Notes: generated by a model not told the origin, from the sequence alone. A stretch of DNA of 64,000 nt from Bacteriovoracaceae bacterium UBA6144 (GCA_002435705.1 DIVA01000052.1:89936-153935), one strand, 5' to 3'; shown: positions 18,716 through 40,751, counted from the stretch's first letter. Program-made: numbers and translations.

Positions 18716-19470
18716 TGAATACACTTATGGCCTTTATTCTTGGGATAGTGGAGGGGATGACAGAGTTCTTGCCTGTTTCTTCAACGGGGCATTTGATTCT
18801 TGCCTCGAATGCTCTGGGAATTGAGAACAATGAGTTTCTGAAACTGTTTGAGATTGTGATTCAAACCGGTGCTATTTTTGCCATTATTTTTATCTACTTC
18901 AAAGAACTCTGGGCTGACAAAACTTATGTTATTAAGTTGGCCGTGGCATTTTTTCCAACAGGCGTTTTGGGATTAGTCGCTTATCCGATTATTAAAAAGC
19001 ATCTTTTTACTCCTGAAGTCGTTGTGGGTGCTCTCTTTGTGGGTGGGATCGTGTTGATCTTTTTAGAACAGTTCACAGCGCGTATCCCTGAACGCAAGCA
19101 AACTTATCCGCGACTTTTCCTCTTGGGGATTTTCCAGTGCCTGGCCTTCATCCCTGGTGTCTCACGTTCTGCTTCTACCATTCTGGGCGCTAAGCTTCTA
19201 GGGGCCAGTCGTGCCGAGGCAGTTAAATTCTCATTTCTGCTTGCGATACCAACGATTCTTTCGGCCTCGGGTTACTCACTTCTCAAGGTAAATCACACAC
19301 TGAGCACCGATGAGATTTGGTACTTAGTTGTTGGTCTTGTGACTTCATTTGTCTTTGGCTATATCTCGGTGAAAATTTTTTTAAAGCTGCTAGATAAGAA
19401 GGCTTTTGTGATTTGTGGTGTCTACCGAATCATTTTTTCTCTGATTTATTTCTTTGTGTTTATTCGTTAG
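18712..19470 (+). CDS. uppP: undecaprenyl-diphosphate phosphatase
   Basis: GIVEGMTEFLPVSSTGHLIL and PGVSRSASTI motifs of BacA/UppP. 4-nt overlap with the upstream gene. Confidence 0.85.
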   Translation: MMNTLMAFILGIVEGMTEFLPVSSTGHLILASNALGIENNEFLKLFEIVIQTGAIFAIIFIYFKELWADKTYVIKLAVAFFPTGVLGLVAYPIIKKHLFTPEVVVGALFVGGIVLIFLEQFTARIPERKQTYPRLFLLGIFQCLAFIPGVSRSASTILGAKLLGASRAEAVKFSFLLAIPTILSASGYSLLKVNHTLSTDEIWYLVVGLVTSFVFGYISVKIFLKLLDKKAFVICGVYRIIFSLIYFFVFIR

Positions 19471-20132
19471 GCTTTGCGTGTTCCATCGGGCTGAGTGGAG
19501 TTAATAGTATAGTAGCTTCCTGCTGGGATGATTTGTCCTGCAGGAATATTCGTTCCCGGCCCAAGTGTGCAGAATGCGCCAATAAATGTTCCTTTAGAAA
19601 TTTTAATGTCTTTAATATAAATGTACATTTTTCCATTCTTTGTCATGGCCACATGAGGGGAGATGTAGGTTTTATTTCCAATGAAGACGAAATCTTCAAA
19701 ATGGACATTCCCCCGATCAACGATCTCTACTCCAGGGAGAATATAAACTCCTTTTCCAATTTTTGATCCCCACAATCTCAGCCAAGCATTATATAGACCC
19801 GGTATCAGGAAGAGCATGCGCTCTAACTGAGGAAAAATCATGAAAATCTTCTGCATACGAAATGAATTGATCCATGGGTGGTATTCATTGGGATCAACGA
19901 GGGTTGCCCCTTGTTTCATAGGATAGAGGGCATTGAAAAATCGTTGGGTGAGTGGCGGAAGAAGATAAATATTGGCCAGGGCCAATATGAAAAAGAGAGG
20001 TTGAGATTTTTTTAGACCAAGATAAATTAGTGTCGTAAAACCAATCGCTAAAAAGAAAGCGAAATAAATGAGAAAAAACTTAGTAAGATTATAAACCCAG
20101 CGGGGCATGACTCGATTCTTCTTTTTACTCAT
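19467..20132 (-). CDS. membrane-anchored hexapeptide-repeat (left-handed beta-helix) acyltransferase-like protein
   Basis: Two N-terminal TM helices, then an LbH-like region GKGVYILPGVEIVDRGNVHFEDFVFIGNKTYISPHV...ISKGTFIGAFCTLGPGTNIPAGQIIPAGS. Confidence 0.5.
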   Translation of the reverse strand: MSKKKNRVMPRWVYNLTKFFLIYFAFFLAIGFTTLIYLGLKKSQPLFFILALANIYLLPPLTQRFFNALYPMKQGATLVDPNEYHPWINSFRMQKIFMIFPQLERMLFLIPGLYNAWLRLWGSKIGKGVYILPGVEIVDRGNVHFEDFVFIGNKTYISPHVAMTKNGKMYIYIKDIKISKGTFIGAFCTLGPGTNIPAGQIIPAGSYYTINSTQPDGTRKA

Positions 20133-20152
20133 GATTTAGTGTAGCATAAATT

Positions 20153-21505
20153 ATGACCATAAAACTTCAGCCGCAGATGCCTCCTAAAGATTTTCTTACA
20201 GGCCCAGTTTCTGGGCATATGTTTCAGATGATTAAAGATCGCTTCCAGTTTCTCCAAAAAGCCATGTTAAATCAGGGTGATTTTGTCCACTTTAAGTATT
20301 TTAGAGATAATACTTATTTAATGCTTCATCCCGATGGCATAAAGCATGTTCTCTCAACGGGGCAGGCCAAGTATTCAAAGATGGTGCGAGGGACGCAGAT
20401 GTTAGCGCTTATTGGAGGTCGAGGACTTTTGACCAGTGAGGGTGAGTTTTGGCAGCAGAGTCGACGTGTGATACAGCCTTTCTTCATCAAAAAACAATAC
20501 GCTCGCTATGTAGAAATGATGAATGATTGTGCGCTTAAACTGGTGGCGCGCTGGAAAGAGAGATTTCTCGACCGTGAGTTTGATCTTTCTCCTGAAATGA
20601 CAAAATTTACTCTCAACGTTTTAGGACGCTCCATCTTTAATGAAGACTTTGACCCTCATACAGATACGGTTTATGAGTCGCTCAGAGGCTTACTCAATAT
20701 TACCGAAGATCGTATCGTGCATTTAATCCCACGCAGGGGAAAAGCTAAAAAAGAACAAGATCTGGCTTTTGCTCGCGAGATGAAGATATTAGAAGACTTA
20801 GTGGATGGTTTGATCATTAAAAGTAAAAACGCCACGACCCTAGATCCGGAGAAGAATTTTATTCATGCCATGATGGCAAGCAGTGTGGAGTTTAGTGACA
20901 AGGATCTAAGAGACCATGTGATCTCCCTTTTGATTGCAGGCCATGAGACGACTGCTACGGCCTTGAGCTGGTTGTTCATTCTTTTAGAAAATCACCCGAC
21001 CCATAAAAAGAAGATATTAGACGAGATAGCTCTTATCCCTCAGGAGCAAGTCAGCTTGGAGGAGATCGATTCACTGGAATTCACAAAGTGCTGTGCCCAA
21101 GAATCACTTAGACTTTATCCTCCTTTCTGGATCATGGGACGTGTCGCTACTCAGGAAGATGAACTCCTGGGCCACCCCATAAAAAAAGGTGATCGAATTC
21201 AAATCAATCCTTATTTCACTCACCATAACCCTCGTTACTGGGAGCAGCCGGAAGAATTTAGACCGGAGAGATTCTTGCCTGAGAATATTTCCAAAATAAA
21301 TGAGTATTGCTTCATTCCTTTCGGCAAAGGGCCTCGAACTTGTATTGGAAACCACTTTGCGATGTTTGAAATGCTAGTAGGAGTGTTTCAACTCTTAAAG
21401 CATTTTGATTTTCAGGTCGTGAATGCTCAGGCCATCAAGCCTGATTTTAGAATTACCCTAAGGCCTGATCAAGAGGTGAAAGTTAAGATTAAAGTGATCA
21501 AGTAG
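20153..21505 (+). CDS. cytochrome P450
   Basis: Heme-thiolate loop FGKGPRTCIGNHFA, I-helix AGHETTA, ExxR (ESLR). Confidence 0.9.
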   Translation: MTIKLQPQMPPKDFLTGPVSGHMFQMIKDRFQFLQKAMLNQGDFVHFKYFRDNTYLMLHPDGIKHVLSTGQAKYSKMVRGTQMLALIGGRGLLTSEGEFWQQSRRVIQPFFIKKQYARYVEMMNDCALKLVARWKERFLDREFDLSPEMTKFTLNVLGRSIFNEDFDPHTDTVYESLRGLLNITEDRIVHLIPRRGKAKKEQDLAFAREMKILEDLVDGLIIKSKNATTLDPEKNFIHAMMASSVEFSDKDLRDHVISLLIAGHETTATALSWLFILLENHPTHKKKILDEIALIPQEQVSLEEIDSLEFTKCCAQESLRLYPPFWIMGRVATQEDELLGHPIKKGDRIQINPYFTHHNPRYWEQPEEFRPERFLPENISKINEYCFIPFGKGPRTCIGNHFAMFEMLVGVFQLLKHFDFQVVNAQAIKPDFRITLRPDQEVKVKIKVIK

Positions 21506-22348
21506 AGCTATAAGTATCCAGCAAGCATAAAAAAGCCCGATATAGGCACTACCGATCAAAGTAATTTTTTCTTTTTTCACGACCCTACTCAATCGTAGTA
21601 TCTGGACACAAAAGAGTGTGACAGGAATCCATGATTGAGTCAGGTAAAGCATTGACCCCATGGCAATAAAAGCGAACACATCACTTAGAAGCAACGAGGG
21701 CATGAAACCCAATGCCTGAGAGTAAGAGCGTTTCCCTGTTTTTTCGTCTCTTGGGTAGAATATTTTTCGAGAAAATTCATAATAGAGAAATGAGCTCGCA
21801 AAAGAAAGCATAAGGATGAGATCCTCATATTGAGGATCCGTGGACCAATGGAAGTAAAAAAGTGCTGTGATGTAGATCGAGAGAGCGATGTTTATAGGAT
21901 AAGTTAATATTAAATTAAGCATCATATGTGAGCGCACTATGGCAGATTTTTTCTCGAGGATGAGGAGAAAAAAAGAATAGGCAATCTGGCCTATGAGAAT
22001 GGCAAGGACCTCATAACCATTTAGGGCATTTAACGATAGAAAACCGGTGCAACTGATCAAAATAAAAAAATAGAGATCACGATGCGTTAAGCTTTTTTTC
22101 ACCAAGGGTCGGTCAGGATTAAAATGAAGATCATATTCATAGTCTTTGATCTCATCCATGATTCGTAAAAAAAGTAGTGAGAGATAGAGGGTGAGGATTG
22201 CGACAATGAGATAGGGTGAAAATTGAAGTGCGTGGCCATGCGTGAGGCAGAGTCCACAGTAGAAAGCCAAGACCCAATTAAGGGCGAAGTAGAGGTGGAC
22301 TCCTGGATGGTAGACGTCTCGGCAAAATTGATTTAATTTTTTCATCAT
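21458..22348 (-). CDS. UbiA-superfamily-like polytopic prenyltransferase (last gene of PKS-like operon)
   Basis: About 8 TM helices. Asp-rich loop MDEIKDYEYDLHFNPDRPL resembles the first UbiA motif followed by RPL. 4-nt overlap with the upstream gene. Confidence 0.5.
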   Translation of the reverse strand: MMKKLNQFCRDVYHPGVHLYFALNWVLAFYCGLCLTHGHALQFSPYLIVAILTLYLSLLFLRIMDEIKDYEYDLHFNPDRPLVKKSLTHRDLYFFILISCTGFLSLNALNGYEVLAILIGQIAYSFFLLILEKKSAIVRSHMMLNLILTYPINIALSIYITALFYFHWSTDPQYEDLILMLSFASSFLYYEFSRKIFYPRDEKTGKRSYSQALGFMPSLLLSDVFAFIAMGSMLYLTQSWIPVTLFCVQILRLSRVVKKEKITLIGSAYIGLFYACWILIALLDHFNLNFHLLIRP

Positions 22349-25032
22349 GACTCAATGATACGAATGATCCCAAGACCCCCATCGATCTCAATCATTTGTC
22401 CCTCTTTTATCTTTTGAGTGACTCCAGGAACCGACACAATTGTGGGGATCCCAAATTTTCTGCCAGTGATCGCCGTGTGGGAGAGCATCGACCCTCGCTC
22501 CACCACCATCCCTTTGGAGGCGAGCATCAGAAAAAGCCACCCTGGATCTGTTTCTTTGGCGATCAAAATATCACCATCAAACATTTTTTCTACTTTTTGT
22601 GGATCAAGCACAATCCGCGCACGGCCTCGAACAATCCCAGGGCTAGATCCCAACCCCTTGAGTGTTGTTGCATCTTCTTGGATTTCTGGTTTTATGAGGA
22701 CCTGCTGATAAAGCGCTCCATTTGTGGTGATATCCATGGGGAGATCCACTTTTTCATGGGCTGCAAATTCTTGTCTTCTCAGATGAATGATCTCTTTTAA
22801 ATTGGTTTGAAGACTCGATCCCTCAATCAATCCAAAAACTTCATCTACGTGAAGAAAAAAGATGTCACTGGTATCTTGAATGACTCCAGCGTCTTTGAAA
22901 TGGAGAGCGATGCGATTAAAGATACGTTTAGAAAAGCCAAACAGTTCTGAACGGCAGTAGCGGGTATCTTCACGGTTTTGAATAAAACCTCTGAGACGCC
23001 AAAACTGAAAGCGCAGGATGGCGCGCTTAAAGGGGGAGAAGCGTAGTTTTTTAGCCAGTAGAGCTTCACCCTCTTCTCGGCGTTTTAATTCATCTTCTAG
23101 TATTTTTTCAACTGTCAAATTTTGAGAAAGGTAGTTTTTGATAATTTGAATGAGTTGAACCGGATCATCTCTCAGGCTTTTTTGTTCCAGCTTTAATTCC
23201 TGTAGGCCCCGGTCTCCAAAATGATACAGGTGATGCTCGATTTTTTCTTTCAGATGGCTGAAGGCATTGTCTTGGTAAATTCTATTCCATATGAAACTCT
23301 GATCTTCGGACTCAAAGAGTTGCAAGAGTAATGGGTCTTTTTTTACGAATTCACTCAGTGAGACACCATTGTACATGATCTCAACGCTCTTAAAATTATG
23401 ACCTCCGCACAGGAGGTTACTCATGAGTTGAGGATCATGTATTTTCCATGATTTCATGAGAAATTCTGTCACATGGTAGGCGGTCGGCAGGTGAGTGTCA
23501 TTGAGGAGAGTGATCCACCACTTGACGCCTACATCCTGCCATAATTGACGGTAGAGACTCATGCATTCAAAGCTTGAAAGTTCTTTAAAGTCTTTGCCTC
23601 TTAGTGGCTTGAAACGTTCTTCCCACCACATCAAGAATCGATTCACGTCTCTTTGATTGGTCAGGTAGCGCCAACTAATCAGCGCCAGTCCAAAGAGCGT
23701 GTAGCGAATAGAACCCAGACCTTTAATAAATTTTTTAAACTGACCTAGTCCTTGATCAATATGAAAGGAGCCAGAAAACCCCATCATGTCTTCCCATTGC
23801 TTTTTAAAAAAGATAAAAAGCGGACTCAGTGAGTGCAGGCGATAGAAACTTGAAAGATTGTAATAAATTTTACCATGCAGATAACCCACCATATGGTCGA
23901 GATGCTCAATGTTTTGCATGATAATTTTTTCAGGAACACCCAGGGCCCGATAGCAGTCGATAAATATGATACGGTAGAAGTCTTGAGCAAAAGAAAAGGT
24001 CAAGGGGGTGCTGGTCCCAGGAAAACTTTCAGACACATTGGCACTTGTCCAAACGATCACGCTTTGTTCACTAAACTGAATAGGGCGAGATTGTAAAATA
24101 TAAATCCTCTCATCTACCAGACACCCCTCAATGTCTTGGGGGGAAGCAAAAATCTTTTCAATTTTTTTGCCCATCTCACACAGCTTAAGTAGTTGGGCGT
24201 CGGTTAGGACCGGAGCCGTTTTTAGATCTGCCGGAGTAGGCTTTTCTATGATGCCTTCACCCTTCAAATCATCGTGGGTGAGATAGGTCTCTTTCGTTAC
24301 CACTTTTTTCTGAATAAAATTATTATTGGTTTTAATAAAATAATGATCTGTCTCGACCTTCTCTTGAACCACTCCTTCGCCCACACCGAGGCCTGCAACG
24401 ATGAGGGTTTTTTTCTCTAGGGTGTTTGGGTCACAGGTGAACATGACAAAAGATTTCTCTGCAAATATCATCTCTTGTATCCCCACCGCGACAGTGAAAT
24501 CAAAAAGATCAATCCCTTGCGTATGACGATAGGTCAAAACTTGAGGGCTAAAACCAGAGGCAAAACAGTCTTTTATGCGACTCAGAAGACTTTCTTTTTT
24601 TACATACAAAAAAGATTCACTCATTCCCGCAAAGGCATGGAGAACGGAGTCTTCGCTGTGGTCACGATTTTGAGATATCATCGAAGAGCGCACAGAAACC
24701 AGAGTGCCTGGCTTAAAGAGTTGATCAAATTTCTGGTGGAGAAGTTGGCTGAAGTCCTGAGGAAACTCAATATTTGAAATGAGTGAGTGGAGCTTGTGGC
24801 TTGCATCTTTTATACTTTGATCCGACTGCCAGTCAGTAGCCGCCAGAAGCTCTCGGAAGTCTTTTTGGAGATGACTCACTAGCTGTTTAAATACTTCTCC
24901 AGTGAGGCAAAAAAATGGAGGTACGGGTAATCCTGCTCGGGCCATAACCGATTGTTTCTGAAATTTTCCACCGACTTCTTCATCATGGAGTTTGTCACTT
25001 GAGAGCTTAAGGTGTCCGGCGGAGAGCTTCAT
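22345..25032 (-). CDS. PEP/pyruvate-binding (ATP-grasp) + swivelling phosphohistidine domain protein, rifampicin-phosphotransferase-like architecture
   Basis: N-terminal PPDK_N-like EEVGGKFQKQSVMARAGLPVPPFFCLT. C-terminal PEP-utiliser mobile domain ILIAKETDPGWLFLMLASKGMVVERGSMLSHTAITGRKFGIPTIV. About 450-aa helical middle domain. 895 aa. Confidence 0.75.
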   Translation of the reverse strand: MKLSAGHLKLSSDKLHDEEVGGKFQKQSVMARAGLPVPPFFCLTGEVFKQLVSHLQKDFRELLAATDWQSDQSIKDASHKLHSLISNIEFPQDFSQLLHQKFDQLFKPGTLVSVRSSMISQNRDHSEDSVLHAFAGMSESFLYVKKESLLSRIKDCFASGFSPQVLTYRHTQGIDLFDFTVAVGIQEMIFAEKSFVMFTCDPNTLEKKTLIVAGLGVGEGVVQEKVETDHYFIKTNNNFIQKKVVTKETYLTHDDLKGEGIIEKPTPADLKTAPVLTDAQLLKLCEMGKKIEKIFASPQDIEGCLVDERIYILQSRPIQFSEQSVIVWTSANVSESFPGTSTPLTFSFAQDFYRIIFIDCYRALGVPEKIIMQNIEHLDHMVGYLHGKIYYNLSSFYRLHSLSPLFIFFKKQWEDMMGFSGSFHIDQGLGQFKKFIKGLGSIRYTLFGLALISWRYLTNQRDVNRFLMWWEERFKPLRGKDFKELSSFECMSLYRQLWQDVGVKWWITLLNDTHLPTAYHVTEFLMKSWKIHDPQLMSNLLCGGHNFKSVEIMYNGVSLSEFVKKDPLLLQLFESEDQSFIWNRIYQDNAFSHLKEKIEHHLYHFGDRGLQELKLEQKSLRDDPVQLIQIIKNYLSQNLTVEKILEDELKRREEGEALLAKKLRFSPFKRAILRFQFWRLRGFIQNREDTRYCRSELFGFSKRIFNRIALHFKDAGVIQDTSDIFFLHVDEVFGLIEGSSLQTNLKEIIHLRRQEFAAHEKVDLPMDITTNGALYQQVLIKPEIQEDATTLKGLGSSPGIVRGRARIVLDPQKVEKMFDGDILIAKETDPGWLFLMLASKGMVVERGSMLSHTAITGRKFGIPTIVSVPGVTQKIKEGQMIEIDGGLGIIRIIES

Positions 25033-25958
25033 GGATGGCCTCTGGAGAGTGATTGTGCAAGTGGCTTGAGCTTCCCGATTGAATCGATAGCTTTAAACTC
25101 AGGGTATAGACTGATTAATTTTTCAGTGTCCATCGTTTGATTTTGACCAATCAGTTGCAGTTTTGTTGCCAGTGACTTCGGGCCCACTAGTTTTGTGACA
25201 GCAATAAAGAGCTTCACTGGAATGCTTCGGCGATGATGAAAGTTACCAAAGAGTGAATAGATTTCTTTGAGACTTATGCTTTGCGGGTAAGCGACATTTA
25301 AAACCATGGACTTCTCTAGATTGAGACCCAAAAGTATCAAGCGTACATAATCTTCTACGAGGATGTAACTGTATCGCTGTTCTCCGTTCCCCAATAAAAC
25401 ACCTTTTTGGAACTGCTGATAAATTTTGGGAAGTGTTTCTGTTTCACGCGGATCAAATAAAAAGCGTGGTCTAAAAATGTGATAAGGGATCTGTGCATTT
25501 GTTGCAAAGTTCACTACGAGTTCTTCAGCCTCTCGTCTGGTGTGGGCGAGGTTGGTTTGCGGGGCAGTTTGAGCTTCTTCGCTAACATTCAAAAAAGGTC
25601 CTTGGCCGTAGACTGACATGGATGAGCCCAGAAATATTTTTTTTATCCGATTCTGACCTGCAGTTAATATATTTTTGAGTCCATGAACATTGGTTTTTCT
25701 CAATGTTTCAAGATCTCGTGCTTTATGTTGATGGGCGAAGTGAAATAAAAAACTATTCTGTGAAAAGAGATCAGCGGGGATCGATTGAGTCAGATCGCCC
25801 ATGACGTAATCCACACCTGCCAGAGGCTTTGCGGGTAGTCGACGCACAAATGCCTTTATCGTATTTTGTGGATAGGCCGAGATTAACTCTTTAAGTAATG
25901 AGCTACCCACCAGACCATTCGCACCAGTTATAATGAAATGGATCGAGTGATCTACCAT
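25029..25958 (-). CDS. NAD(P)-dependent epimerase/dehydratase-type (extended SDR) oxidoreductase
   Basis: Rossmann motif FIITGANGLVGSSL and SSMSVYG segment. 309 aa. Coupled to its neighbours. Confidence 0.7.
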   Translation of the reverse strand: MVDHSIHFIITGANGLVGSSLLKELISAYPQNTIKAFVRRLPAKPLAGVDYVMGDLTQSIPADLFSQNSFLFHFAHQHKARDLETLRKTNVHGLKNILTAGQNRIKKIFLGSSMSVYGQGPFLNVSEEAQTAPQTNLAHTRREAEELVVNFATNAQIPYHIFRPRFLFDPRETETLPKIYQQFQKGVLLGNGEQRYSYILVEDYVRLILLGLNLEKSMVLNVAYPQSISLKEIYSLFGNFHHRRSIPVKLFIAVTKLVGPKSLATKLQLIGQNQTMDTEKLISLYPEFKAIDSIGKLKPLAQSLSRGHP

Positions 25959-26602
25959 AGCAGGGGAATGATCCTTTTACGGTTGAGAGCATACTCGGGA
26001 TATCCTTTGATTTGAAAGAGGGCCCGCTCTTCCACGAGGATGCGATAGACCACTGCAGGCACATGGATGAGCGCCCAAAACGCGAGAGTCCAATAGTTAA
26101 AAAAGAATAAACTGAAACCGAGGTGAGAGAGGATCATCCCTGTGTAGGCCGGATGGCGCACAAATCGGTAGGGACCCTGACTGATGATTCGATGTTCTGA
26201 TTGAACACGGACTCTGTGCGAGTAGAACTGACCCAACTGTCGAATGGCGACTAAACGAAAGATAATGGCGAGAACAAAGAGGGTGAAGCCTATAGCGTGC
26301 AGGAGATGTAATTCTAAAAATAATCCTGAAAAGTAGAGCCCAGACAAAACAACCAGTGCACGTGAGAATGCGTAGAGTTCAAGTGAAAACGAATCAATTT
26401 GAGTCTTCTCCTGACCGATTTCTTTGGTAGCAACCTTGGACTCTAAAACAATCCACAAGAGGTAGAGTCCCACAAAAACCAGTGTAGGAATAAAGAGAGT
26501 GCTTCCTTGAAGTTCTTGAGCACGCAGATAAGTCAGCCCAGAAATAGAGCCTAGAAACAAAACGGAGAGCAGGATGGGCAAGAAACCTTGAAAATGTCGC
26601 AT
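25952..26602 (-). CDS. isoprenylcysteine carboxyl methyltransferase (ICMT/PEMT)-family membrane methyltransferase
   Basis: Polytopic. C-terminal signature GPYRFVRHPAYTGMIL...VEERAL. Confidence 0.7.
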   Translation of the reverse strand: MRHFQGFLPILLSVLFLGSISGLTYLRAQELQGSTLFIPTLVFVGLYLLWIVLESKVATKEIGQEKTQIDSFSLELYAFSRALVVLSGLYFSGLFLELHLLHAIGFTLFVLAIIFRLVAIRQLGQFYSHRVRVQSEHRIISQGPYRFVRHPAYTGMILSHLGFSLFFFNYWTLAFWALIHVPAVVYRILVEERALFQIKGYPEYALNRKRIIPLLW

Positions 26603-34500: not shown

Positions 34501-35263
34501 CGGAGTAAACGATTTGAGAGGGGGAATTGATATTGGCAAGCCAGTTTTCAGCTTGGGGTATGAGATCGACTATCTTCTGATGTAGGTTTTTCCAATTATG
34601 ATTATCTCTTTCAAAGATAGCGAGCATTTTTCCTGAGGCCAGGATATTGGCCTCAGCCATCACTCGCCCACGCTCAAGACTCATGTCGACTAACTCATCT
34701 AAAGAGATGAGTTCACTGTGTTTGAGAGCGCAGAGTTCTCCAAAGCTATGTCCCGCACTAAAGGCGGCGAGAATGTTGTGGCTTTCAAGTAGCCTCAGGC
34801 TTGCCATGTTGGCACAAGTTAAAAGTGGCTGAGTGAATTGAGTCTGATCAATGCCTGCTTCCATTCCATTGTAGAGAGAGGCGAGAGCTAATTTCTTGTC
34901 TGAGAATTTTCTTAAGAGTTGCTCAAAGGTCTCACTGAAAGCAGTATAAGTCTGAAGGTGCTGGAGCATTTGCACGTACTGGCTGCCTTGGCCTGGAAAG
35001 AGAAAGGCCCTTTGCTCAACAGGTATGCTCCTTTCAGAATAGGTAAAAAAATCTGAGCGATAAAAAGTTGAAGTCGAAGCTTCAAGGTCTGTGACGATTT
35101 GTTTTTTTAATTTCTGAAACTGATCTTGATGTTGCAGGAGTAGGCAGAGTCTCACTGGTCCAGAGCCCAGAGTGCTTATCTTATCCGTAGGATACGTCGA
35201 CTGATTGAGAAGATCCAAAATGCCATATTTAGAATCTGCTTTGAGGAGCAAAAGTTTCTTCAA
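31568..35263 (-). CDS. multidomain PKS/FAS-like protein: acyltransferase - ACP - ACP - degenerate ACP-like - ketoreductase
   Basis: AT: FLFPGQGSQYVQM, GHS(173)FGE, AFHSPLM. ACP1 LDS(523)M. ACP2 LDS(608)L. Third ACP-like helix bundle has Asn693 in the Ser position (LRLNIF). KR: LLVGGARGITSEIA and Y(1140)SYAN. TTG start after AGGGA. Confidence 0.8.
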   Translation of the reverse strand: MKKLLLLKADSKYGILDLLNQSTYPTDKISTLGSGPVRLCLLLQHQDQFQKLKKQIVTDLEASTSTFYRSDFFTYSERSIPVEQRAFLFPGQGSQYVQMLQHLQTYTAFSETFEQLLRKFSDKKLALASLYNGMEAGIDQTQFTQPLLTCANMASLRLLESHNILAAFSAGHSFGELCALKHSELISLDELVDMSLERGRVMAEANILASGKMLAIFERDNHNWKNLHQKIVDLIPQAENWLANINSPSQIVYSAGVDDIEELAQICFKHQIRSTMLTASAAFHSPLMKPAEVKFHQFLQKLLTTKRTRVNTVIACNPVSSYQNTSDVVTHLSQQLTHQVDWIHAVNTLATKGVKLFIEVGPKNILTKLTQEILGEDYICLNLDGTKELENFLMPLLALGIEVKESQKKLDAVVSNVTIATSKGDKENKIIKGFLEKQQLLMAQVSQLSAGEQSAVKRIIAADTEEVLANFFKIEGLTPQTNEHSTLDPSTELILNEISLLTGFKVSEISLDARFDSDLYLDSMTKLELLSNLSEKFKADVSDMTALLNANSVRELNAIISKYKVQNSQEELRDEVAWLRNEIINYTGISTDKISPSSSFNEDLMLDSLIKLELIANLKTRFPQLDLKIEELTRVNSLLEIQTLLIKHQGRLTGEGHEKKSSLSIKENLAHFLNLKLEKIQSTSDFEHDLRLNIFEKEDFINSLIVKHPYLQLAVREMLHAKTLGDLLEIEEIFDRRSKTRGSDEEVSRFEFELEEIKFKQESRKDHPDHAYLLVGPWEKNIGFKDFFADQKYFTLPTMSTLRNQITNLGSFSCYFIFLQFSHLSWERANIEKQIEEIYELCQSLNQLSPTKLCLIYDSHHNPLIASLPAALKSLSKEVTHSFRLLDMTINKTTTKSIPWQFFYQNTNERFISLTQQGNNFFREAIKIIEPPKVNAHITLPASPHILLVGGARGITSEIAKFLADYRQATVSAIGRTPLSATRPFDECQSDAELRDELKKEILKTHAHADASEQNFLFNLRYTEVNNQREIWNTKDSIERRGGVFHYISADATKSIDLKKAVSKIQKDFGKIDGIIHAVGLTRDNLLKNKSYEDFRQVVQSKIASAYNVYETFSDEKKLSFVCFFSSLSSWSGAPGQTDYSYANEVLNQLAIKWNAQSPYPVAALLWSVWSETGLAQDNLLLRMQELKLSGISNRAGIRLFKEEVLHHGLNHSKVLFTPKSTLNYSIGKNV

Positions 35264-35416
35264 GATTTCCCTAAGTCTTTAATGAGATTGTCTGAATTTA
35301 TTTTAGGTTAATTGGAGAGTTGTCTCAATAAAACAATACCTGAGTAAAAGTCTCTTGCCTTGTGTTCAATTCCTTCTATTGATACCTTTTATGTGTCACT
35401 AAACAAGAGAGAAACC

Positions 35417-36085
35417 ATGGCTTTTATTGAAGCTCGTCAATTGAGAAAATCCTATGCTAGTGCGGATCACGAAGTCGAGATTTTGAAAGGGATTAATCTG
35501 GGGATTGAAAAAGGTGAGTTCATTTCACTGATGGGACCTAGTGGTGCGGGAAAAAGTACTTTGCTGCAGTTACTTGGTGCCCTTGATCGTCCCAGTGCGG
35601 GAGAAATTATTATTGATGGAAAAGATCTATCTCGGATGTCGGATACCGAATTAACTCTTTTCCGTAGGCGCCGTCTTGGTTTTATTTTTCAATTTTTTAA
35701 TCTCATGCCTACTTTAAATGTTCTAGAAAATGCGGCCCTCCCGTGTTTTCTTGATGGAAAGAGCCTGAACTCAGTGCGAGGGTTTGCCACGGAAACATTG
35801 GAGCGCTTGGGCCTTGGGCATCGACTCGATCATCGCCCCCACCAACTCTCAGGTGGAGAAATGCAACGGGTGGCCATTGCCCGCGCCTTGGTCAATAAGC
35901 CTTCACTTATCTTAGCCGATGAGCCAACGGGTAATCTGGATTCAAAAAATGGGGCTGAGGTTCTCAGCATTTTAAAAAATTTAGTGAAAGATTTTAATGT
36001 GACTTTAGTTATGGTGACTCATGACAAAAGTGCGGCAGAAGTGGCAGATCGTAAAGTGCAGCTTCTCGATGGCGTTGTCGTTTAG
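35417..36085 (+). CDS. ABC transporter ATP-binding protein (MacB/LolD-type)
   Basis: Walker [10 protein letters not shown], signature [15 protein letters not shown], Walker B LILADEPT. The ATG at 35417 is preferred over the TTG at 35360. Confidence 0.85.
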
Positions 36086-36094
36086 GAGCCTTGA

Positions 36095-38701
36095 GTGATT
36101 TTAAATCTATTTCGTTATTTTTCCTTGCGCTATCTTATTCTTCATCCCTTTAGAAGTCTTTTGACAGCATTGGGTGTTGCTCTGGGCATATCATTGTTTT
36201 TGTCGATTCGACTCCTCAATGATGCGACGCTGAGATCTCTTGATCAAAACATTGAATCGATGACGGGGAAGTCAGATCTTACGATTACTTCTGATGGAAT
36301 GGGCTTCGAAGAGGCGGTACTGGAAAAAGTCAAGGCCCTCACATCCGTGAAGGCTGCCATCCCTCTCATATTAAATTACGCCTATGTTGATGATGCCCCC
36401 GATGCCACTCCCATGGTTTTCCTTGGGATTGATATGCTCAAGGACACATCCATTAGAGATTACAATGAGGGTGGGGGAGACATCGTTCCTGATCCACTGG
36501 CTTTTGTGAATCAAGCCGACAGTGTGATAGTCACAAAATCTTGGGCGAAACAGAACAATCTTCAGATGGAAGATAATATTGATCTGTTAACGAAAGAAGG
36601 GGTGAAGTCATTTGCCATTCGCGGCCTGATCGATAACGTAGGTCCAGCTAAAGCTTTCAATGGAATGCTGGCCATCATGGATATTGATGGGGCGCGATTT
36701 AATTTTGGCCGCGATGGTCTTTATGATCGTATTGATATTCTGATTCATCCTGGGTCGAACCTCGATGAACTAAAAACAGAGCTGCAGCAACTTCTGGGGT
36801 CGCGTTTTCGGATAGAGGATAAAACTGAGCAGTCTGAATCAATGCAGCAGCTCGTGAAGTCAGTGCAAGATGTTTCAAACCTCTTAGGTCTCATTGCTTT
36901 TCTTGTGAGTTTCATGATTATTGTGAACACCGTTAACACCGCGATCTCTCAGCGAAGAAAAGACATTGGTTCATTACGTGCTTTTGGAGCAGCTTCTCAT
37001 CACATCGTCATACTCTTTGCTGGTGAGTTTCTCTTCCTGGCCCTGATCAGTTCCATTCTTGGTTGTTTTATTGGGATCAGCTTTGCGGAGAGTTCAGCAG
37101 ATCAGATGGCCCGCGGTCTTAATTCGACCCTTATGACAAACGTGAATCAGATGGCGATCACTTTTGGACTAAGTGATTTTTTCGCCTCTGTTATCTTGGG
37201 GCTTCTCAGTTCCTCGGTCGCTTTAATCTATCCTCTCTATAAAGCGCTTCAGATAAACCCGATTGAAGCCATCAAGCCTGCAGTGGTTGATTTTACTCAT
37301 CATAAAAAGCCCAGGCTTTTCATCTGGGCCGCTTGGCTTGGATTTTTATTAATGAGTCTCACTGTGGCGGCTGATTTTTTCTCGGCTCAAGTGGAGTGGC
37401 TCCAGGCCAAAGACATCCAACCACTCATTCTTCTACTAGGACTCTCAGGAATTGTTCTCATGGGTCCCTACCTCGTTCTCACTCTCTTGGGGCTCATCCA
37501 TCGCTTGCCTTTGCCTTTTCTGTTTAAGTTTTCTATGGCGAATTTACTTAAAAATCCTCTCCGGACGGCCAGCACATCCATCCATCTTTCTTTGGGCTTT
37601 AGCCTCGTGATCATTGTAACGGCCATCAACCTCTCTTTTAAATCCACCATCCTAAGCTGGACCGAACGAATTACTAGTATGCCTCACTCCGTAAATATTA
37701 CTCCTTGGGGCAGTATTTCTGGGCTTCAGATTCAACCTCTGCATGAATCCTTGATTCCACGCTTAAAGGAAAGCCTGCCAGGGTTGAATCCCTTAAACCC
37801 TAAGCCCATTCTTGCGATACGTATTATTCCTCTGACCATTCAATCTCAGCGCTATATTGTGAAGGCTTACGATAAGCCTTCAAATACCTCAATCATCCGC
37901 TACATTGATCCTATTGAAGGGAAGCGGGAAGACTTGGCCAATGCTCTTTTTGATCCCTCACAAGACACGCTCCTTTTATCTGAGACGATGTTGAAACATA
38001 TAGGCAAAAAAGTCGGTGATCAATTTGAGATAGAGACTCCCTCTGGATTAGTAAGTTTTAGGATCGGTGGTAATATCCGTGAGTTCGCAAGCCCTAATGG
38101 TGTCATCTACATGGACCGTGAGGTTTATAAAAAATACTGGAAAGACCCTCTTGTCACTCTCCTCTCGGTCGATCATGACCCTGCTCTCACAAGTGTGGAT
38201 TATATCAAACTCATTAACTCTCAGGTCAAGGGAGAGCATCTTGTGGTGAATCTCCCGGCCAAGATTCGTGAAGAGGTGGCACGCAACCTGGAAGATAATA
38301 TGGCCATGAGTGACTCGACCAAATGGGTGGCACTTTTTATTGGAACATTAGGACTACTGAATTCAATCCTCATTGCTATCCTTCAGCGTTTTCGAGAACT
38401 GGGCTGTATTCGATCGATTGGTATGACCAAAGGGCAGATGCTTTTGATGATTCTGCTGGAATCAGCGAGCCTTGGATTTATCGGTATTATCGTTTCTTTT
38501 GCTCTCACTATTCCACTCTCTTATCTTTGGGTGAATTCGACCTTGAGCTATATGCTTGGCTGGAAAGTGGATTTCTTTTTTACGATGAAGGACTTCCTGT
38601 GGCTCTTTGGCATCGGTCTCTTTGTTTCATTTATTGCAGGCATCCTTCCGGCCATTAAAGCCTCAGGCCTAAAGTTGCGAGAGGCCCTAGAATACGAATG
38701 A
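36095..38701 (+). CDS. ABC transporter permease with two FtsX/MacB-type domains (YbbP-like)
   Basis: 868 aa. Two copies of the 4-TM FtsX module, each preceded by a large periplasmic domain (RKDIGSLRAFGA...; RELGCIRSIGMTKGQ...). Confidence 0.8.
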   Translation: MILNLFRYFSLRYLILHPFRSLLTALGVALGISLFLSIRLLNDATLRSLDQNIESMTGKSDLTITSDGMGFEEAVLEKVKALTSVKAAIPLILNYAYVDDAPDATPMVFLGIDMLKDTSIRDYNEGGGDIVPDPLAFVNQADSVIVTKSWAKQNNLQMEDNIDLLTKEGVKSFAIRGLIDNVGPAKAFNGMLAIMDIDGARFNFGRDGLYDRIDILIHPGSNLDELKTELQQLLGSRFRIEDKTEQSESMQQLVKSVQDVSNLLGLIAFLVSFMIIVNTVNTAISQRRKDIGSLRAFGAASHHIVILFAGEFLFLALISSILGCFIGISFAESSADQMARGLNSTLMTNVNQMAITFGLSDFFASVILGLLSSSVALIYPLYKALQINPIEAIKPAVVDFTHHKKPRLFIWAAWLGFLLMSLTVAADFFSAQVEWLQAKDIQPLILLLGLSGIVLMGPYLVLTLLGLIHRLPLPFLFKFSMANLLKNPLRTASTSIHLSLGFSLVIIVTAINLSFKSTILSWTERITSMPHSVNITPWGSISGLQIQPLHESLIPRLKESLPGLNPLNPKPILAIRIIPLTIQSQRYIVKAYDKPSNTSIIRYIDPIEGKREDLANALFDPSQDTLLLSETMLKHIGKKVGDQFEIETPSGLVSFRIGGNIREFASPNGVIYMDREVYKKYWKDPLVTLLSVDHDPALTSVDYIKLINSQVKGEHLVVNLPAKIREEVARNLEDNMAMSDSTKWVALFIGTLGLLNSILIAILQRFRELGCIRSIGMTKGQMLLMILLESASLGFIGIIVSFALTIPLSYLWVNSTLSYMLGWKVDFFFTMKDFLWLFGIGLFVSFIAGILPAIKASGLKLREALEYE

Positions 38702-39964
38702 GGCCCCAAAGCCGATAGAGCTGAGATCTTTGAGCACTCCGAGGGGAGTGTTAGAACTTCCCTCAAAAATCAGAGCATAGACTGAGAGGTGGAAATTCTC
38801 TGTCCACAGATAGTCAAATTGCGGCGTAAAAAGCTGAGCACTTTCATAGTGAAAGTAATTAAGCCATGAAAATTTAAATTTGAATTGATTCAATTCCAGC
38901 GGCTCATATTGGTAAACGATGAGTGAACCCAGGCGAGTCTCTTGATGTTGTGCTTGAAGTAAAAGATTAATGTTTTGCACTGAGCGAGTAATCTGATCAT
39001 TTGAGGGTGAGCGCTGGTAATCTGGGTAATGGTGAGCCACCGCTTGTAGGTTAAAGCGGTGATTATCTCCGACACTCTTTTCAAACCCTACAACTGCATC
39101 CAAGCGGTCTGGGTTCGTGATGGCATCGGCATTAGCAATAGTATCGAGGCGACGATGATAGGCCAATTCCGTTCGTACAATAAAAGTTTCGAAGTCTTTT
39201 GCCAGATTTAGACCATGGCTTTCCTGACGAACATGAATGGGTTTTAGGGTGATATTGAGGGGAAGAAGGTTACGTGACTGCTCAGTGAGTAGTGGTGTTT
39301 TGTTCACGCCTCGATAGAAGATGTAATCAAAATCAAAGCCTTCACCGAGGTAATTGAGCTTGAAGGCGTATTCTTGTTCTTGAAAGAGCTCTTGATCTCT
39401 CAGTGTGATGACATTTTTAGTCAGCCCACTATTGAGGAGAACATCTGAGTAGGCGTGTTCATGAACATACCAAAACTCAAAGCTCCAGGGGCTGGCCCCA
39501 CTTGAAGGAGTCCACTCAAGACTTGCACTGGTGTGACCCCTGCGCGTGAGAGCGTCATCAGTGACTAAAAGTAAGTTTCGTTTGCCGCTGAGAAAATCGG
39601 TGGGGTTGAGACCATCAGATTTTCCCCAAGAAGTGATCTGGCGACCTGCCTTAAGACGAAAACTTTCTGTCTTGTAAAGAAGGGAGAGTTGATTGAATTC
39701 TAAAAAAGTTTCACCCCGTTTTAAATCTTTGTTGGGCATGATGAGCAGGGGAGTTTGAATGGCATAGCCCAAGGTTTCTAAAGAGAATTGCCATGACTCA
39801 TGGGGCTTGTATTTGGCAAATATTCTGGCCCCGCCATTGTGCTGAGTTTCCTCTTGAAAGAGATGAGAGGTCTTAGAGAGGGAGTTGCCCCACATCTTTC
39901 CACCCCACTCAAAAGCATGGAGAGTTGGACTTAGCAGAAGGAGCAGTAGGGCTAATTTAGTCAT
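38687..39964 (-). CDS. putative outer-membrane beta-barrel protein
   Basis: Signal peptide MTKLALLLLLLSPTLHA. Alternating hydrophobic beta-strand pattern throughout. C-terminal GFGASFVF with terminal Phe, typical of OMPs. Confidence 0.5.
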   Translation of the reverse strand: MTKLALLLLLLSPTLHAFEWGGKMWGNSLSKTSHLFQEETQHNGGARIFAKYKPHESWQFSLETLGYAIQTPLLIMPNKDLKRGETFLEFNQLSLLYKTESFRLKAGRQITSWGKSDGLNPTDFLSGKRNLLLVTDDALTRRGHTSASLEWTPSSGASPWSFEFWYVHEHAYSDVLLNSGLTKNVITLRDQELFQEQEYAFKLNYLGEGFDFDYIFYRGVNKTPLLTEQSRNLLPLNITLKPIHVRQESHGLNLAKDFETFIVRTELAYHRRLDTIANADAITNPDRLDAVVGFEKSVGDNHRFNLQAVAHHYPDYQRSPSNDQITRSVQNINLLLQAQHQETRLGSLIVYQYEPLELNQFKFKFSWLNYFHYESAQLFTPQFDYLWTENFHLSVYALIFEGSSNTPLGVLKDLSSIGFGASFVF

Positions 39965-40751
39965 CTTTGCCTAGCTTCTGTTTGTAAAAGCGGGCTTCAG
40001 GAATAGCTGTTTTCCAGTCGACATTTGCAAACTCGAGAATCGTGAATTGTGAGTTCGTGAGATTTTTCATTTCAAGTTTTGTAAAAAAGAATTTTCCAGG
40101 ATTGATGGCAACGGGCTGGGTGGTATCGAGCTGTTTGAAAATCTTGTTATTTTGATCTAGGTAGTGCACTCGATCAGTCATCGAGTTATCCTGACGAATC
40201 CAGAGAATGAGTTTGTGATAACCCAGACGTTGAGCACTTTGAGGATTCTTGAGGGCGGAGTTAATCTTATAACACTTCACCTGTGCTAGGTTAGGACAGG
40301 TCTCTAGGCTTTCTTCTTTAAAAGTATAGTCTTCATTTTGCAAGGCCGTAATATCTGAGAAAGTGAAGTCACTGGCCATGAAGCTTGAGTTCTGTTGTGA
40401 GCTTTCGATGATGCGGGTTTTTTTAAATGTCGGCAGCCACATAAGAATTTCATTTTTTTCACCACTGCTTTCTAAAAAGAGAATGGCCTGATTCTTCACT
40501 GTGGCAGGCGTATGAAAAATAGTCAGAGTATTAAAGTGGATTTGATCTTTTTGGATCTGCCTCCACCAGGTAAAGGTCTTCTCTTGGCGCTTGCGCGTCC
40601 CCCCGTCAATAATGATCTTTCCTTCAGCTTTTAAGCTTAGTGTCTGGCGCGCCTTTTCATTTTTTGCCATGACATCCTTGGCCGTCCATTTTTGGGCGAT
40701 ACTTTCGTCGATAAAAATGAAAGAGGGCAAGAGAAGAAGAAAAAGAAACAT
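39957..40751 (-). CDS. outer-membrane lipoprotein-sorting (LolA-like, PF17131-type) protein
   Basis: Signal peptide. MWLPTFKKTRIIESSQQNSSFMASDFTFSDI closely resembles the LolA_like consensus (LYLPALKRVRRISSS..SFMGSDFTYEDL). Confidence 0.7.
   Translation of the reverse strand: MFLFLLLLPSFIFIDESIAQKWTAKDVMAKNEKARQTLSLKAEGKIIIDGGTRKRQEKTFTWWRQIQKDQIHFNTLTIFHTPATVKNQAILFLESSGEKNEILMWLPTFKKTRIIESSQQNSSFMASDFTFSDITALQNEDYTFKEESLETCPNLAQVKCYKINSALKNPQSAQRLGYHKLILWIRQDNSMTDRVHYLDQNNKIFKQLDTTQPVAINPGKFFFTKLEMKNLTNSQFTILEFANVDWKTAIPEARFYKQKLGKDD

Follow-up and report, generated by a model that had tools for sequence, protein, structure and literature searches.

The 64,000-nucleotide stretch of DNA from Bacteriovoracaceae bacterium UBA6144 (GCA_002435705.1 DIVA01000052.1:89936-153935), referred to here as the window, includes a 14-gene locus built around eight minus-strand genes that code for polyketide synthase (PKS) subunits, an acyl-AMP ligase, membrane methyltransferases and phosphate-related enzymes. 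This locus is probably a biosynthetic gene cluster (BGC) for a phosphorylated butenolide or γ-butyrolactone (GBL) lipid, and belongs to a hitherto undescribed family that is sister to the Salinispora salinipostin (spt) cluster. One of its PKS subunits has an AfsA-type domain fused to a ketosynthase (KS). The original prediction had described the locus as an orphan that did not belong to a classical butyrolactone pathway. This last statement proved to be its least tenable part, because the AfsA domain makes a butenolide or butyrolactone phosphate the expected intermediate. The locus is also less surprising than first thought, since the chemistry of the first committed step is predictable.

The eight core genes run from 35263 down to 21458 and are translationally coupled. 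Their consecutive junctions, read 5' to 3', are overlaps of 4, 4 and 4 nt, a gap of 9 nt, and overlaps of 7, 4 and 4 nt. These coordinates, overlaps and gap, which had been given by the original prediction, were reproduced exactly in the open reading frame (ORF) map. Its domain calls, including the pseudo-acyl carrier protein (pseudoACP), the half-KS and the UbiA-like protein, were confirmed by Pfam, NCBIfam and motif inspection, and by an AlphaFold model in the case of the UbiA-like protein, so that all 14 genes of the locus have the features ascribed to them. As stop and start codons overlap, co-transcription of the eight core genes is inferred.

The C-terminal part of PKS subunit B (nt 28746-29651) matches the Pfam AfsA family PF03756 in two stretches at 45-51 bits (Pfam cut-off 24) and, again in two stretches, the NCBIfam ScbA/BarX model (E 1e-15), the latter with a score far under the family cut-off (58 vs 200 bits). 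One repeat of this double-hotdog domain includes the motif DHxxDHxPG (as FFDHxxDHxPG) and the other includes HKxxxENVL and ExxRQ. Residues D703, H704, D707, H708, P710, G711, H805, K806, N811, E850, R853 and Q854 are invariant in 24 fusion proteins, and we take them to be catalytic on the basis of ScbA mutagenesis. The motif region can be aligned to the Spt9-like protein and to the AfsA protein of Streptomyces clavuligerus, and a hidden Markov model (HMM) of the domain retrieves stand-alone AfsA genes located beside UbiA-like genes in the same cassette context. The AlphaFold model of this part is a double hotdog (pLDDT 89), and its Foldseek matches include TesB, FatA and PKS dehydratase (DH) domains. 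From its motifs the domain is most likely a phosphorylated butenolide synthase (PBS), for which condensation with dihydroxyacetone phosphate (DHAP) is predicted.

The remaining domains of the two PKS subunits belong to the front end. Subunit A has the order acyltransferase (AT), ACP1, ACP2, a serine-less ACP-like repeat (about aa 660-730) and ketoreductase (KR). The AT (aa 82-381) includes GHSFG with Ser173, the functional ACPs are limited to the two that carry Ser524 (ACP1) and Ser608 (ACP2), and the KR (aa 946-1172) has an intact-looking motif set (GGARGIT, K1101 and YSYAN). The gene is located upstream of the KS-AfsA gene, a position kept in the related loci L082-L087 and L134. The KS of subunit B (nt 30372-31571) is complete, with Cys154, His282 and His320 invariant in 24 relatives, and is followed by a partial KS-N-like domain of 240 aa (nt 29652-30371, E 2e-6). 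The acyl-AMP ligase, a probable starter-loading enzyme, has the motifs GYGLTE, TGD and C-terminal YK(V)P intact. Its P-loop (A3) is degenerate, the canonical (S/T)(S/T)G(S/T)(S/T)GxPK being replaced by TCHMTFKGFATPLG.

The other core genes encode two ICMT-family methyltransferases, a short-chain dehydrogenase/reductase (SDR)-like protein, a PPDK-like phosphotransferase and a UbiA-like protein. ICMT1 has RHGAYSG and EE motifs and transmembrane (TM) segments, and is an extra paralogue found in clusters with the KS-AfsA fusion gene; ICMT2, which matches the ICMT structures 5V7P and 4A2N, is the copy that belongs to the conserved cassette. The next protein is extended-SDR/epimerase-like by Pfam and retains the N-terminal GxxGxxG NAD(P) motif, but its catalytic YxxxK dyad is missing throughout the family: it is replaced by L-x-x-(T/S)-R in eight of the eight members aligned (the window, L084-L087, L091, L099 and L106). 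Binding of NAD(P) by this protein may thus be non-canonical or serve no redox function. The PPDK-like protein consists of an ATP-grasp domain, Rph_4th as the substrate-binding domain and a swivelling phospho-histidine domain with His852 in SHTA. Its best NCBIfam match is a separate uncharacterised model, PRK06241.2-2 (603 bits), whereas it reaches 311 bits, under a cut-off of 999, with the Rph model NF041857. Its best Protein Data Bank (PDB) matches are the Rph structures 5HV1 and 5FBS (247 bits).

The window copy of the UbiA-like protein has no Pfam match, and a PDB sequence search with it gave none. Its first Asp-rich motif is canonical and invariant (D65 E66 xx D69 xxx D73 ... R80 P81 L82). 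The AlphaFold model (pLDDT 92.9) shows a multi-helix UbiA fold with Foldseek matches to 6M31, 7BPU, 4OD5, 4TQ4 and 8J8J, the best being digeranylgeranylglyceryl phosphate (DGGGP) synthase and UbiA homologues, and with TM-scores of about 0.6-0.66 against the first four. Some enzymes with this fold take donors other than prenyl diphosphates, such as the membrane phosphoribosyltransferase 8J8J.

In Salinispora the spt set includes Spt1 (PF00391 and PF01326), Spt2 (AMP-binding), Spt4 (ACP), Spt5 (NAD_binding_4), Spt6 (NDK), Spt7 (UbiA), Spt8 (luciferase-like) and Spt9 (AfsA); Creamer et al. 2021 define an spt-like BGC by the presence of spt1, spt5, spt6, spt7 and spt9, and all of the published spt-like clusters (91/91) are actinomycete (PMC8209734). 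Kudo et al. 2020 showed that Spt9 converts a 3-keto N-acetylcysteamine thioester and DHAP to a butenolide phosphate (bioRxiv 10.1101/2020.10.11.335315). In the same pathway Spt6 converts the reduced GBL phosphate to a pyrophosphate, and this step was proposed to power closure of the cyclic phosphate, to which a fatty alcohol is esterified last (bioRxiv 10.1101/2020.10.11.335315). The spt-type locus used for comparison, L127, includes by Pfam Spt1, an Spt2-3 fusion (AMP-binding with a weak nucleotidyltransferase match), an ACP, an NAD_binding_4 reductase, NDK, AfsA and UbiA.

Three of the window proteins have homologues in L127. The PPDK-like protein is 27% identical over its full length to the Spt1-like protein (313 bits), the UbiA-like protein is 28% identical to the Spt7-like protein (E 2e-13), and the AfsA motif region matches the Spt9-like protein (E 9e-8). 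The window SDR, on the other hand, gave no BLASTP match to the L127 Spt5-like reductase, which has a normal YERSK; its match to NAD_binding_4 is secondary (32 bits vs 74 for Epimerase). The AMP-ligases of the window and of the Spt2-3 fusion are only 22% identical, and no counterpart of the nucleotidyltransferase-like C-terminal Spt3 part was found in the window. The NDK family PF00334 had no Pfam match in the window ORFs scanned, and the motif NxxH[GA]SD is absent in the six frames of the window and of 12 related loci checked. While Spt1, Spt7 and Spt9 are represented in the window, Spt5, Spt6 and Spt2-3 are not. The AfsA/PPDK/UbiA trio is common to both, and the window belongs to a distinct ICMT-containing sister family, defined by AfsA, an ICMT methyltransferase, the atypical SDR, the PPDK-like protein and the UbiA-like protein. 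It was found in Proteobacteria, a Bacteriovoracaceae metagenome-assembled genome (MAG), a cyanobacterium and actinomycetes.

Two other correspondences were considered and set aside. Spt3 is not an ICMT protein, as the L127 Spt2-3 fusion carries no ICMT. An AMP-ligase/ACP/SDR fatty-alcohol branch, as proposed for Spt2/4/5, is disfavoured because the SDR, which has no YxxxK, is of another type than NAD_binding_4, and because Ketobacter-type proteins put the ligase at the starter-loading position.

As to the orphan status, no product is known and no paper was found on the ICMT-containing cassette or on KS-AfsA fusions, nor were later work on Spt1 or Spt7, a cyclophostin cluster, or AfsA together with an isoprenylcysteine methyltransferase, in literature searches with incomplete coverage of subscription publications. 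The notion that the locus has no known relatives was lost with the homology of the spt trio. The original prediction had treated synteny with a pathway of known product as decisive against it; what was found is part of the gene set of the spt cluster in a different gene order.

The eight-gene core is found in identical order in at least 12 independent contigs at 32-72% identity and within unrelated flanks: 72% in L082, about 50% in L083 and L084, 45% in L085 and L134 (the Bacteriovoracaceae MAG), and 32-35% in L086 and L087 (Ideonella azotifigens). The co-conservation implied by the original prediction is thus borne out, the gene order being kept in many unrelated contigs. About 15 proteins are 40-72% identical to the KS-AfsA protein, and the wider family of fusions, of about 1,000-1,300 aa, includes proteins from I. 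azotifigens, Paenibacillus lentus, Klebsiella oxytoca and Aquirhabdus as well as from MAGs of Bacteriovoracaceae, Oligoflexia, Planctomycetota, Chloroflexi, Bryobacteraceae, Desulfobacteraceae and Deltaproteobacteria. A contig scan with the KS-AfsA alignment, in which generic KS peptides served as query, returned mostly unrelated PKS and fatty acid synthase loci and five true KS-AfsA genes.

The UbiA-like subfamily has 109 representatives (E ≤ 1e-30) among 1.84 billion 50%-identity clusters, and a query with the PPDK-like protein of S. clavuligerus retrieved 857 proteins (E ≤ 1e-30) from a 90%-identity clustered collection, several of them on contigs equal in length to contigs with KS-AfsA matches. 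A UbiA-anchored metagenome scan, in which six-frame ORFs were scored with HMMs of the cluster proteins, covered 41 loci. Flanks of 3 kb or more were available for 24 of them, and in 20 of these AfsA and/or PPDK-like genes were located beside the UbiA-like gene; both were present wherever the upstream sequence reached at least 7 kb. No AfsA, PPDK-like, ICMT or SDR neighbor was detectable in L095, L096, L120 and L121, where the UbiA-like gene has 3-5.6 kb of flank. A word-indexed search with the same protein gave 16 close relatives and no actinomycete, and a tblastn search of a plasmid collection found one place, the S. clavuligerus plasmid pSCL4; in the plasmid database overall the matches were limited to pSCL4 and a partial one in S. 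durmitorensis.

In pSCL4 the AfsA, ICMT, PEP/pyruvate-binding (PPDK-like) and UbiA-like genes are adjacent. Identity to the window is 37% over the full length of the PPDK-like protein (571 bits), 57% over the C-terminal 102 aa of ICMT2, its catalytic part, and 32% for the UbiA-like protein. The same cassette is found in Plantactinospora sp. BB1 and in Streptomyces sp. DASNCL29, where a zinc-type alcohol dehydrogenase (zinc-ADH) and a NUDIX hydrolase follow; the NUDIX gene hints at a pyrophosphate intermediate. These minimal actinomycete cassettes encompass 7490-14899 in L089, 8481-15226 in L133 and 8437-14534 in L090, and none of the three includes NDK, hence they are not of the published spt-like type. 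An NADP/zinc-ADH-type oxidoreductase and a NUDIX hydrolase follow the Streptomyces cassettes, while in Plantactinospora an SDR-like region after the UbiA-like gene is not one open frame in translation. The PPDK cluster of the Streptomyces sp. PRh5 type, considered as a candidate for a published spt-like locus, proved to be a minimal AfsA-ICMT-PPDK-UbiA-ADH-NUDIX cassette.

Four architectures can be distinguished. Type A, that of the window, has KS-AfsA, AMP-ligase, two ICMT genes, SDR, PPDK and UbiA. Type B is that of Ketobacter alkanivorans (L091), in which a single 2,520-aa protein has the order AMP-binding-ACP-KS-AT-ACP-thioesterase-AfsA and its gene is followed by those for ICMT, SDR, PPDK-like, UbiA-like and MMPL proteins and a fatty-acid hydroxylase; this fused order establishes that a starter is loaded, extended once and released by AfsA. 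Type C consists of stand-alone AfsA, ICMT, (SDR), PPDK and UbiA genes and includes the cyanobacterium Cyanosarcina radialis (L106), and type D is the canonical spt-like type (L115, L127 and L128). KS-AfsA genes without the PPDK/UbiA tail are found in L003, L005 and L088 (Neisseria sp., Aquabacterium and an ENA metagenome contig, respectively). L088 carries P0051, a close relative of the K. oxytoca protein P0047, and pairs KS-AfsA with an AMP-ligase, a HAD hydrolase, an FAD monooxygenase and an ACP protein. Together with L004 (P. lentus), these loci are further, different uncharacterised AfsA pathways in non-actinomycetes.

A route compatible with these genes would begin with the acyl-AMP ligase loading a fatty-acid starter onto an ACP of subunit A. 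By homology, the AT would supply malonyl-ACP and the KS would make the 3-ketoacyl-ACP. The AfsA domain would then release the chain onto DHAP to give a 2-acyl-3-(phosphonooxymethyl)butenolide, a release reaction that has been shown for AfsA, Spt9 and the gladiostatin PBS domain (bioRxiv 10.1101/2020.10.11.335315; PMC7756379, PMC7756420). The PPDK-like enzyme would pass a phosphoryl group from ATP via His852 to the intermediate, yielding either a diphosphate, in place of the missing Spt6/NDK, or an enol phosphate by analogy with PEP synthase. The UbiA-like enzyme, in which one Mg-diphosphate motif is intact, would use that intermediate as a Mg-diphosphate; among enzymes with its fold are some that take diphosphate donors to alkylate the oxygen of a phosphate or hydroxyl group (6M31 and 8J8J). 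One or both ICMT enzymes would O-methylate an acidic oxygen, most plausibly of the phosphate, and the resulting methyl phosphate ester would be neutral, as is the P-OMe of cyclophostin, possibly a cyclophostin-like methyl phosphotriester. In this clade only, the P450 and the hexapeptide acyltransferase would decorate the chain, and the MacB-type ABC, LolA-like and outer-membrane (OM) barrel proteins would move the lipophilic product out of the cytoplasmic membrane. The modified acyl-derived product of the original prediction stands as acyl-derived and likely phosphorylated and methylated. Prenylation is unsupported, as the UbiA-like protein keeps the first Asp-rich motif only and the role of UbiA is unproven even in the spt pathway.

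Several observations weigh against a phosphorylated butenolide or GBL lipid as the product. The hotdog fold alone cannot tell AfsA from a DH or a thioesterase, BLASTP shows only weak similarity between the AfsA part and stand-alone AfsA proteins, and a PDB sequence search with it gave no match, there being no AfsA structure for active-site comparison. AfsA chemistry requires a 3-keto group, which the KR, apparently active, could reduce, and the SDR is without its catalytic Tyr and Lys. In the UbiA-like protein the second Asp-rich motif (DxxxD) is replaced, with Y190-E191-x-x-R194-K195 invariant in all members aligned, a change that suggests a donor or a chemistry unlike ordinary prenyl transfer. 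P. lentus (L004), which also has AT-ACP-KR, keeps KS-AfsA, AMP-ligase, one ICMT and the SDR without PPDK or UbiA, and therefore the PPDK/UbiA tail is separable from the front end. Since Spt6, the Spt5-type reductase and Spt3 are missing, the chemistry after the butenolide phosphate may differ substantially from that of the spt pathway, in which the roles of Spt1 and Spt7 are themselves unproven.

A different outcome, a new envelope lipid, would result if the AfsA-like domain only acylated DHAP to acyl-DHAP, as in ether-lipid pathways, after which the backbone would be reduced, alkylated or prenylated by the UbiA-like enzyme, phosphorylated and methyl-capped to an unusual membrane phospholipid, with Lol-like delivery to the OM. 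Of the alternatives this comes nearest to the original prediction. The UbiA-like model is structurally closest to archaeal lipid ether synthases (6M31 and 7BPU), a lipid phosphate is the substrate of the ICMT/PEMT-type enzyme LmtA, genes for a MacB-type ABC, a LolA-like protein and an OM barrel are adjacent, and different exporters recur beside relatives (MMPL in L091; FtsX-ABC with an HlyD-like adaptor in L086). We nevertheless regard this outcome as unlikely: in every AfsA-family enzyme tested the 3-ketoacyl-DHAP ester proceeds to the butenolide, the AfsA/PPDK/UbiA trio is common to a cluster that produces a butyrolactone phosphotriester, the exporter is missing from several otherwise identical clusters, the SDR needed for reduction of the DHAP ketone has no catalytic Tyr, and there is no polyprenyl-diphosphate synthase in the cluster.

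The locus could also make a simple γ-butyrolactone or butenolide autoregulator of the A-factor kind, with the phosphate removed and the other genes in minor tailoring roles. The AfsA family is best known for products like these, the spt cluster also yields simple Sal-GBLs, and a TetR-family gene lies immediately upstream in one relative (L086). Against this, neither a TetR/ArpA-type receptor nor a BprA homologue or phosphatase is found in or beside the window cluster. A 2.7-kb phosphotransferase, a UbiA-like protein and an ICMT, all strictly co-conserved with AfsA across phyla, would be needless if the product were dephosphorylated, and the lipid-type exporter and the fatty-acid-loading ligase point to a lipophilic end product. 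A signal of this kind has, in our estimation, a small likelihood. More improbable still is a polyunsaturated fatty acid (PUFA)/Pfa-like or other secondary lipid synthase, with the hotdog domain acting as a dehydratase or thioesterase and with a modified fatty acid or alcohol of an ordinary kind as the product. The split AT-ACP-ACP-KR and KS-(half KS)-double-hotdog proteins superficially resemble PfaA/PfaC, there are partial NCBIfam PfaA matches, and the Foldseek matches of the hotdog include TesB, FatA and PKS DH domains. Yet the hotdog matches the AfsA and ScbA/BarX profiles and not FabA or PS-DH, it has DHxxDHxPG/ExxRQ instead of the DH motif HxxxGxxxxP, its HMM retrieves stand-alone AfsA genes in the same cassette context, and the cluster has no enoyl reductase (ER), FabA-type DH or long ACP array. 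The earlier exclusion of a PUFA or heterocyst-glycolipid synthase was sound on these grounds: there were no FabA, PS-DH or ER matches and only two functional ACPs.

Within the preferred assignment to a phosphorylated butenolide or GBL lipid, a more specific and more doubtful proposal is that the AfsA, ICMT, PPDK-like and UbiA-like cassette turns the butenolide phosphate into a neutral, methyl-capped cyclic enol-phosphate, a cyclophostin-type organophosphate warhead. Salinipostins, cyclipostins and cyclophostin inhibit serine hydrolases potently and covalently, and act against malaria parasites, mycobacteria and insects. If the proposal were true, the window version would put the warhead on a long, P450-hydroxylated, acylated and exported fatty chain, and a lipid-like compound that covalently inhibits serine hydrolases would be secreted by a Gram-negative bacterium whose relatives include members of the predatory Bacteriovoracaceae. 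The cassette would then also be the first biosynthetic route to natural methyl phosphotriesters, and the chemistry would extend from actinomycetes to Proteobacteria, Bdellovibrionota-like bacteria and cyanobacteria.

Other consequences do not depend on the warhead. The family keeps the two unexplained spt enzymes (PEP-synthase-like and UbiA-like) and trades the kinase and the fatty-alcohol branch for ICMTs, and comparison of the spt and ICMT types helps to tell ring-making enzymes from those that add the third ester. AfsA-type chemistry coupled with phosphate-modifying enzymes is widespread outside actinomycetes, and the cassette is present in sequenced isolates: I. azotifigens JCM 15503, K. 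alkanivorans and S. clavuligerus (pSCL4). Should the product prove to be no more than a signal or an ordinary lipid, the KS-AfsA fusion would still be of use as a chain-release module that is compact and portable.

Table 1. Coordinates of the features of the window (positions counted from its first nucleotide).
Feature	Length (aa)	Coordinates	Strand	Basis
Eukaryotic-type carbonic anhydrase		5538-6332		
DabB-like proton-antiporter subunit		6333-8147		
DabA		8144-10486		
SulP permease		10464-11987		
SbtA-like Na+/bicarbonate transporter		16564-17526		
Membrane-anchored left-handed beta-helix (hexapeptide) acyltransferase	221	19467..20132	-	Pfam Hexapep, NCBIfam WcaF-like
Cytochrome P450	450	20153..21505	+	Pfam E 5e-82, haem motif FGKGPRTCIG
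UbiA-superfamily intramembrane enzyme	296	21458..22348	-	NCBIfam PRK13592, E 6e-14
PEP-synthase/rifampin-phosphotransferase-like (PPDK-like) phosphotransferase	895	22345..25032	-	Pfam PPDK_N, Rph_4th, PEP-utilizers
Atypical extended-SDR/epimerase-like protein	309	25029..25958	-	Pfam Epimerase/3Beta_HSD
ICMT-family membrane methyltransferase 2	216	25952..26602	-	Pfam ICMT, E 5e-20
ICMT-family membrane methyltransferase 1	220	26612..27274	-	Pfam PEMT/ICMT
Acyl-AMP ligase	491	27271..28746	-	Pfam AMP-binding, E 4e-53
PKS subunit B (KS-AfsA)	942	28743..31571	-	Pfam PF00109/PF02801/PF16197/PF03756
PKS subunit A	1231	31568..35263	-	Pfam, NCBIfam, motif inspection
Divergent intergenic region, biosynthetic operon/ABC exporter genes		35264..35416		
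LolD/MacB-type ABC ATPase	222	35417..36085	+	Pfam, NCBIfam, gene call
Duplicated FtsX permease with MacB periplasmic core	868	36095..38701	+	Pfam FtsX x2, MacB_PCD; TM profile
DUF1302-like predicted outer-membrane beta-barrel	425	38687..39964	-	Pfam E 1e-5
LolA_like (PF17131) periplasmic carrier-like protein	264	39957..40751	-	Pfam E 8e-35; signal peptide

The flanking P450, left-handed beta-helix (LbH) transferase, MacB/FtsX exporter, LolA-like and OM barrel genes named by the original prediction (Table 1) were confirmed by Pfam, motifs and TM or signal peptide predictions. The hexapeptide transferase has an N-terminal TM segment and is co-conserved with the P450, which is present in L082, L084, L085 and L134 and absent in L086 and L087; the two are clade-specific tailoring enzymes, present in the locus as claimed but restricted to the close clade and not part of the core. 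The P450 and UbiA-like genes are convergent with a 48-nt overlap, the P450 and the divergent hexapeptide transferase gene are 20 nt apart by ORF starts, and the latter overlaps the convergent bacA (18712-19470) by 4 nt. On the other side, the identity of the ABC ATPase gene held but not its start: the ORF opens at 35360 and the likely start is the ATG at 35417. The DUF1302-like protein has a signal peptide and a C-terminal ...SFVF with a terminal Phe, and its gene and that of the LolA_like protein are conserved in L082 and L084 only. These two loci are the only ones with all four exporter genes, L083 having the ABC and FtsX genes only. As L085, L134 and L087 have no exporter, the proposed export to the OM is retained as an adjacent envelope exporter and not as part of the conserved core. 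Other transporters adjoin relatives (FtsX, ABC and HlyD-like genes at L086, MMPL at L091). No periplasmic adaptor gene (HlyD/MacA) and no canonical LolA/LolB partners were found in the window locus, and all NCBIfam Lol scores of the window proteins are under cut-off. Because the neighbors vary among relatives, the biosynthetic unit can be defined as 19467-35263 in the close clade, with the exporter as a frequent but exchangeable neighbor.

The best sigma-70-like match in the divergent intergenic region is located on the minus strand at 35328-35300. The total of promoter-like sites in the promoter scan was not above the number in shuffled sequence, and this match is consistent with a promoter but is not evidence for one. 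Terminator-like sites were somewhat commoner than in shuffled sequence, from which no inference was taken. The window has no tRNA, rRNA or Rfam match.

Beyond the LolA_like gene, the region 40831-44309 includes genes for a class I S-adenosylmethionine (SAM) methyltransferase, a 301-aa protein with no Pfam match, a HODM_asu-like protein and a fatty-acid hydroxylase, which may be optional tailoring genes. The first two also adjoin the cluster in the 72% relative L082 and not in L084, and a fatty-acid hydroxylase also ends the Ketobacter cluster. Elsewhere in the window, inorganic-carbon uptake genes are concentrated at 5538-11987 and 16564-17526 (Table 1), which hints at an autotrophic or CO2-limited lifestyle of the host. 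The region 91-2250 codes for a 719-aa fusion of an N-terminal OsmC-like domain and a YcaO cyclodehydratase with its C-terminal domain. Nucleotides 46001-48000 have a G+C content of 0.33 vs about 0.44 elsewhere, include two ORFs with no Pfam match (45433-46848 and 47271-48179) and are possibly recently acquired DNA. The region 48895-55397, unrelated to the cluster, has an unusual combination of genes: they encode a Rieske/VanA-type oxygenase, a GH3-family protein resembling acyl-acid amido synthetases, and a protein of 918 aa with an RnfD/NqrB-like membrane domain and FG-GAP/ASPIC-UnbV repeats.

Individual components of the locus resemble those of several known systems. The Rph and PEP synthase/PigC-RedH types have the same three-part architecture as the window PPDK-like protein, the context of which is biosynthetic while that of Rph is resistance. 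LmtA, the Leptospira lipid A 1-phosphate O-methyltransferase, has the ICMT fold and methylates a lipid phosphate, and ICMT1 matches its NCBIfam model weakly (27 bits vs a cut-off of 325). An ATPase and an FtsX protein with a MacB core are common to the window and to MacB tripartite efflux and Lol release systems; the latter work with an adaptor or LolA/LolB, whereas the partners in the window are the PF17131 LolA_like protein and the DUF1302-like barrel. PUFA (Pfa) and heterocyst-glycolipid synthases differ in their FabA, PS-DH and ER domains, unmatched in the window, which also has no multi-ACP array.

Among systems with AfsA chemistry, the A-factor, SCB and virginiae butanolide pathways (AfsA, BprA, ScbA/B/C) share with the window an AfsA-family double hotdog of two repeats. 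Their BprA reductase, phosphatase and TetR receptor are absent in the window, and the rest of the window cluster has no counterpart in them. The PBS domain of gladiostatin/gladiofungin biosynthesis in Burkholderia gladioli releases an ACP-bound 3-ketothioester by condensation with DHAP (PMC7756379, PMC7756420). As in the window, the host is Gram-negative and the AfsA domain is part of a PKS; there it stands at the end of a long trans-AT line for a glutarimide polyketide, and the phosphate is lost, whereas the window AfsA domain follows a single KS on an ACP-less subunit and is always accompanied by PPDK-like, UbiA-like and ICMT genes. Cyclophostin and the cyclipostins are Streptomyces bicyclic enol-phosphate triesters fused to a butyrolactone, cyclophostin being the methyl phosphotriester (P-OMe) congener of the cyclipostins and salinipostins (PMC6681047), and as of a 2020 preprint they had neither a known nor a predicted gene cluster (bioRxiv 10.1101/2020.10.11.335315). 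The analogy is at the product level only, where the P-O-methyl group could be installed by an ICMT/LmtA-type methyltransferase. The minimal AfsA-ICMT-PPDK-UbiA cassette exists in Streptomyces, the genus of the cyclophostin producers, while the window enzymes point to a far longer acyl chain and to additional tailoring.

The salinipostin cluster shares with the window AfsA, a PPDK_N and PEP-utilizers phosphotransferase, a UbiA-family protein, an AMP-ligase and an ACP, and in both the first committed step is expected to yield a butenolide phosphate, made from 3-ketoacyl-ACP and DHAP. NDK (Spt6), the Spt5 reductase, Spt3 and the luciferase-like Spt8 are found in the salinipostin cluster only. The window, which has a different gene order and a Gram-negative host, has instead its own KS, AT, ACP and KR domains, an AfsA domain fused to the KS, ICMTs and a Tyr-less SDR, to which the close clade adds the P450, the LbH transferase and the envelope exporter.

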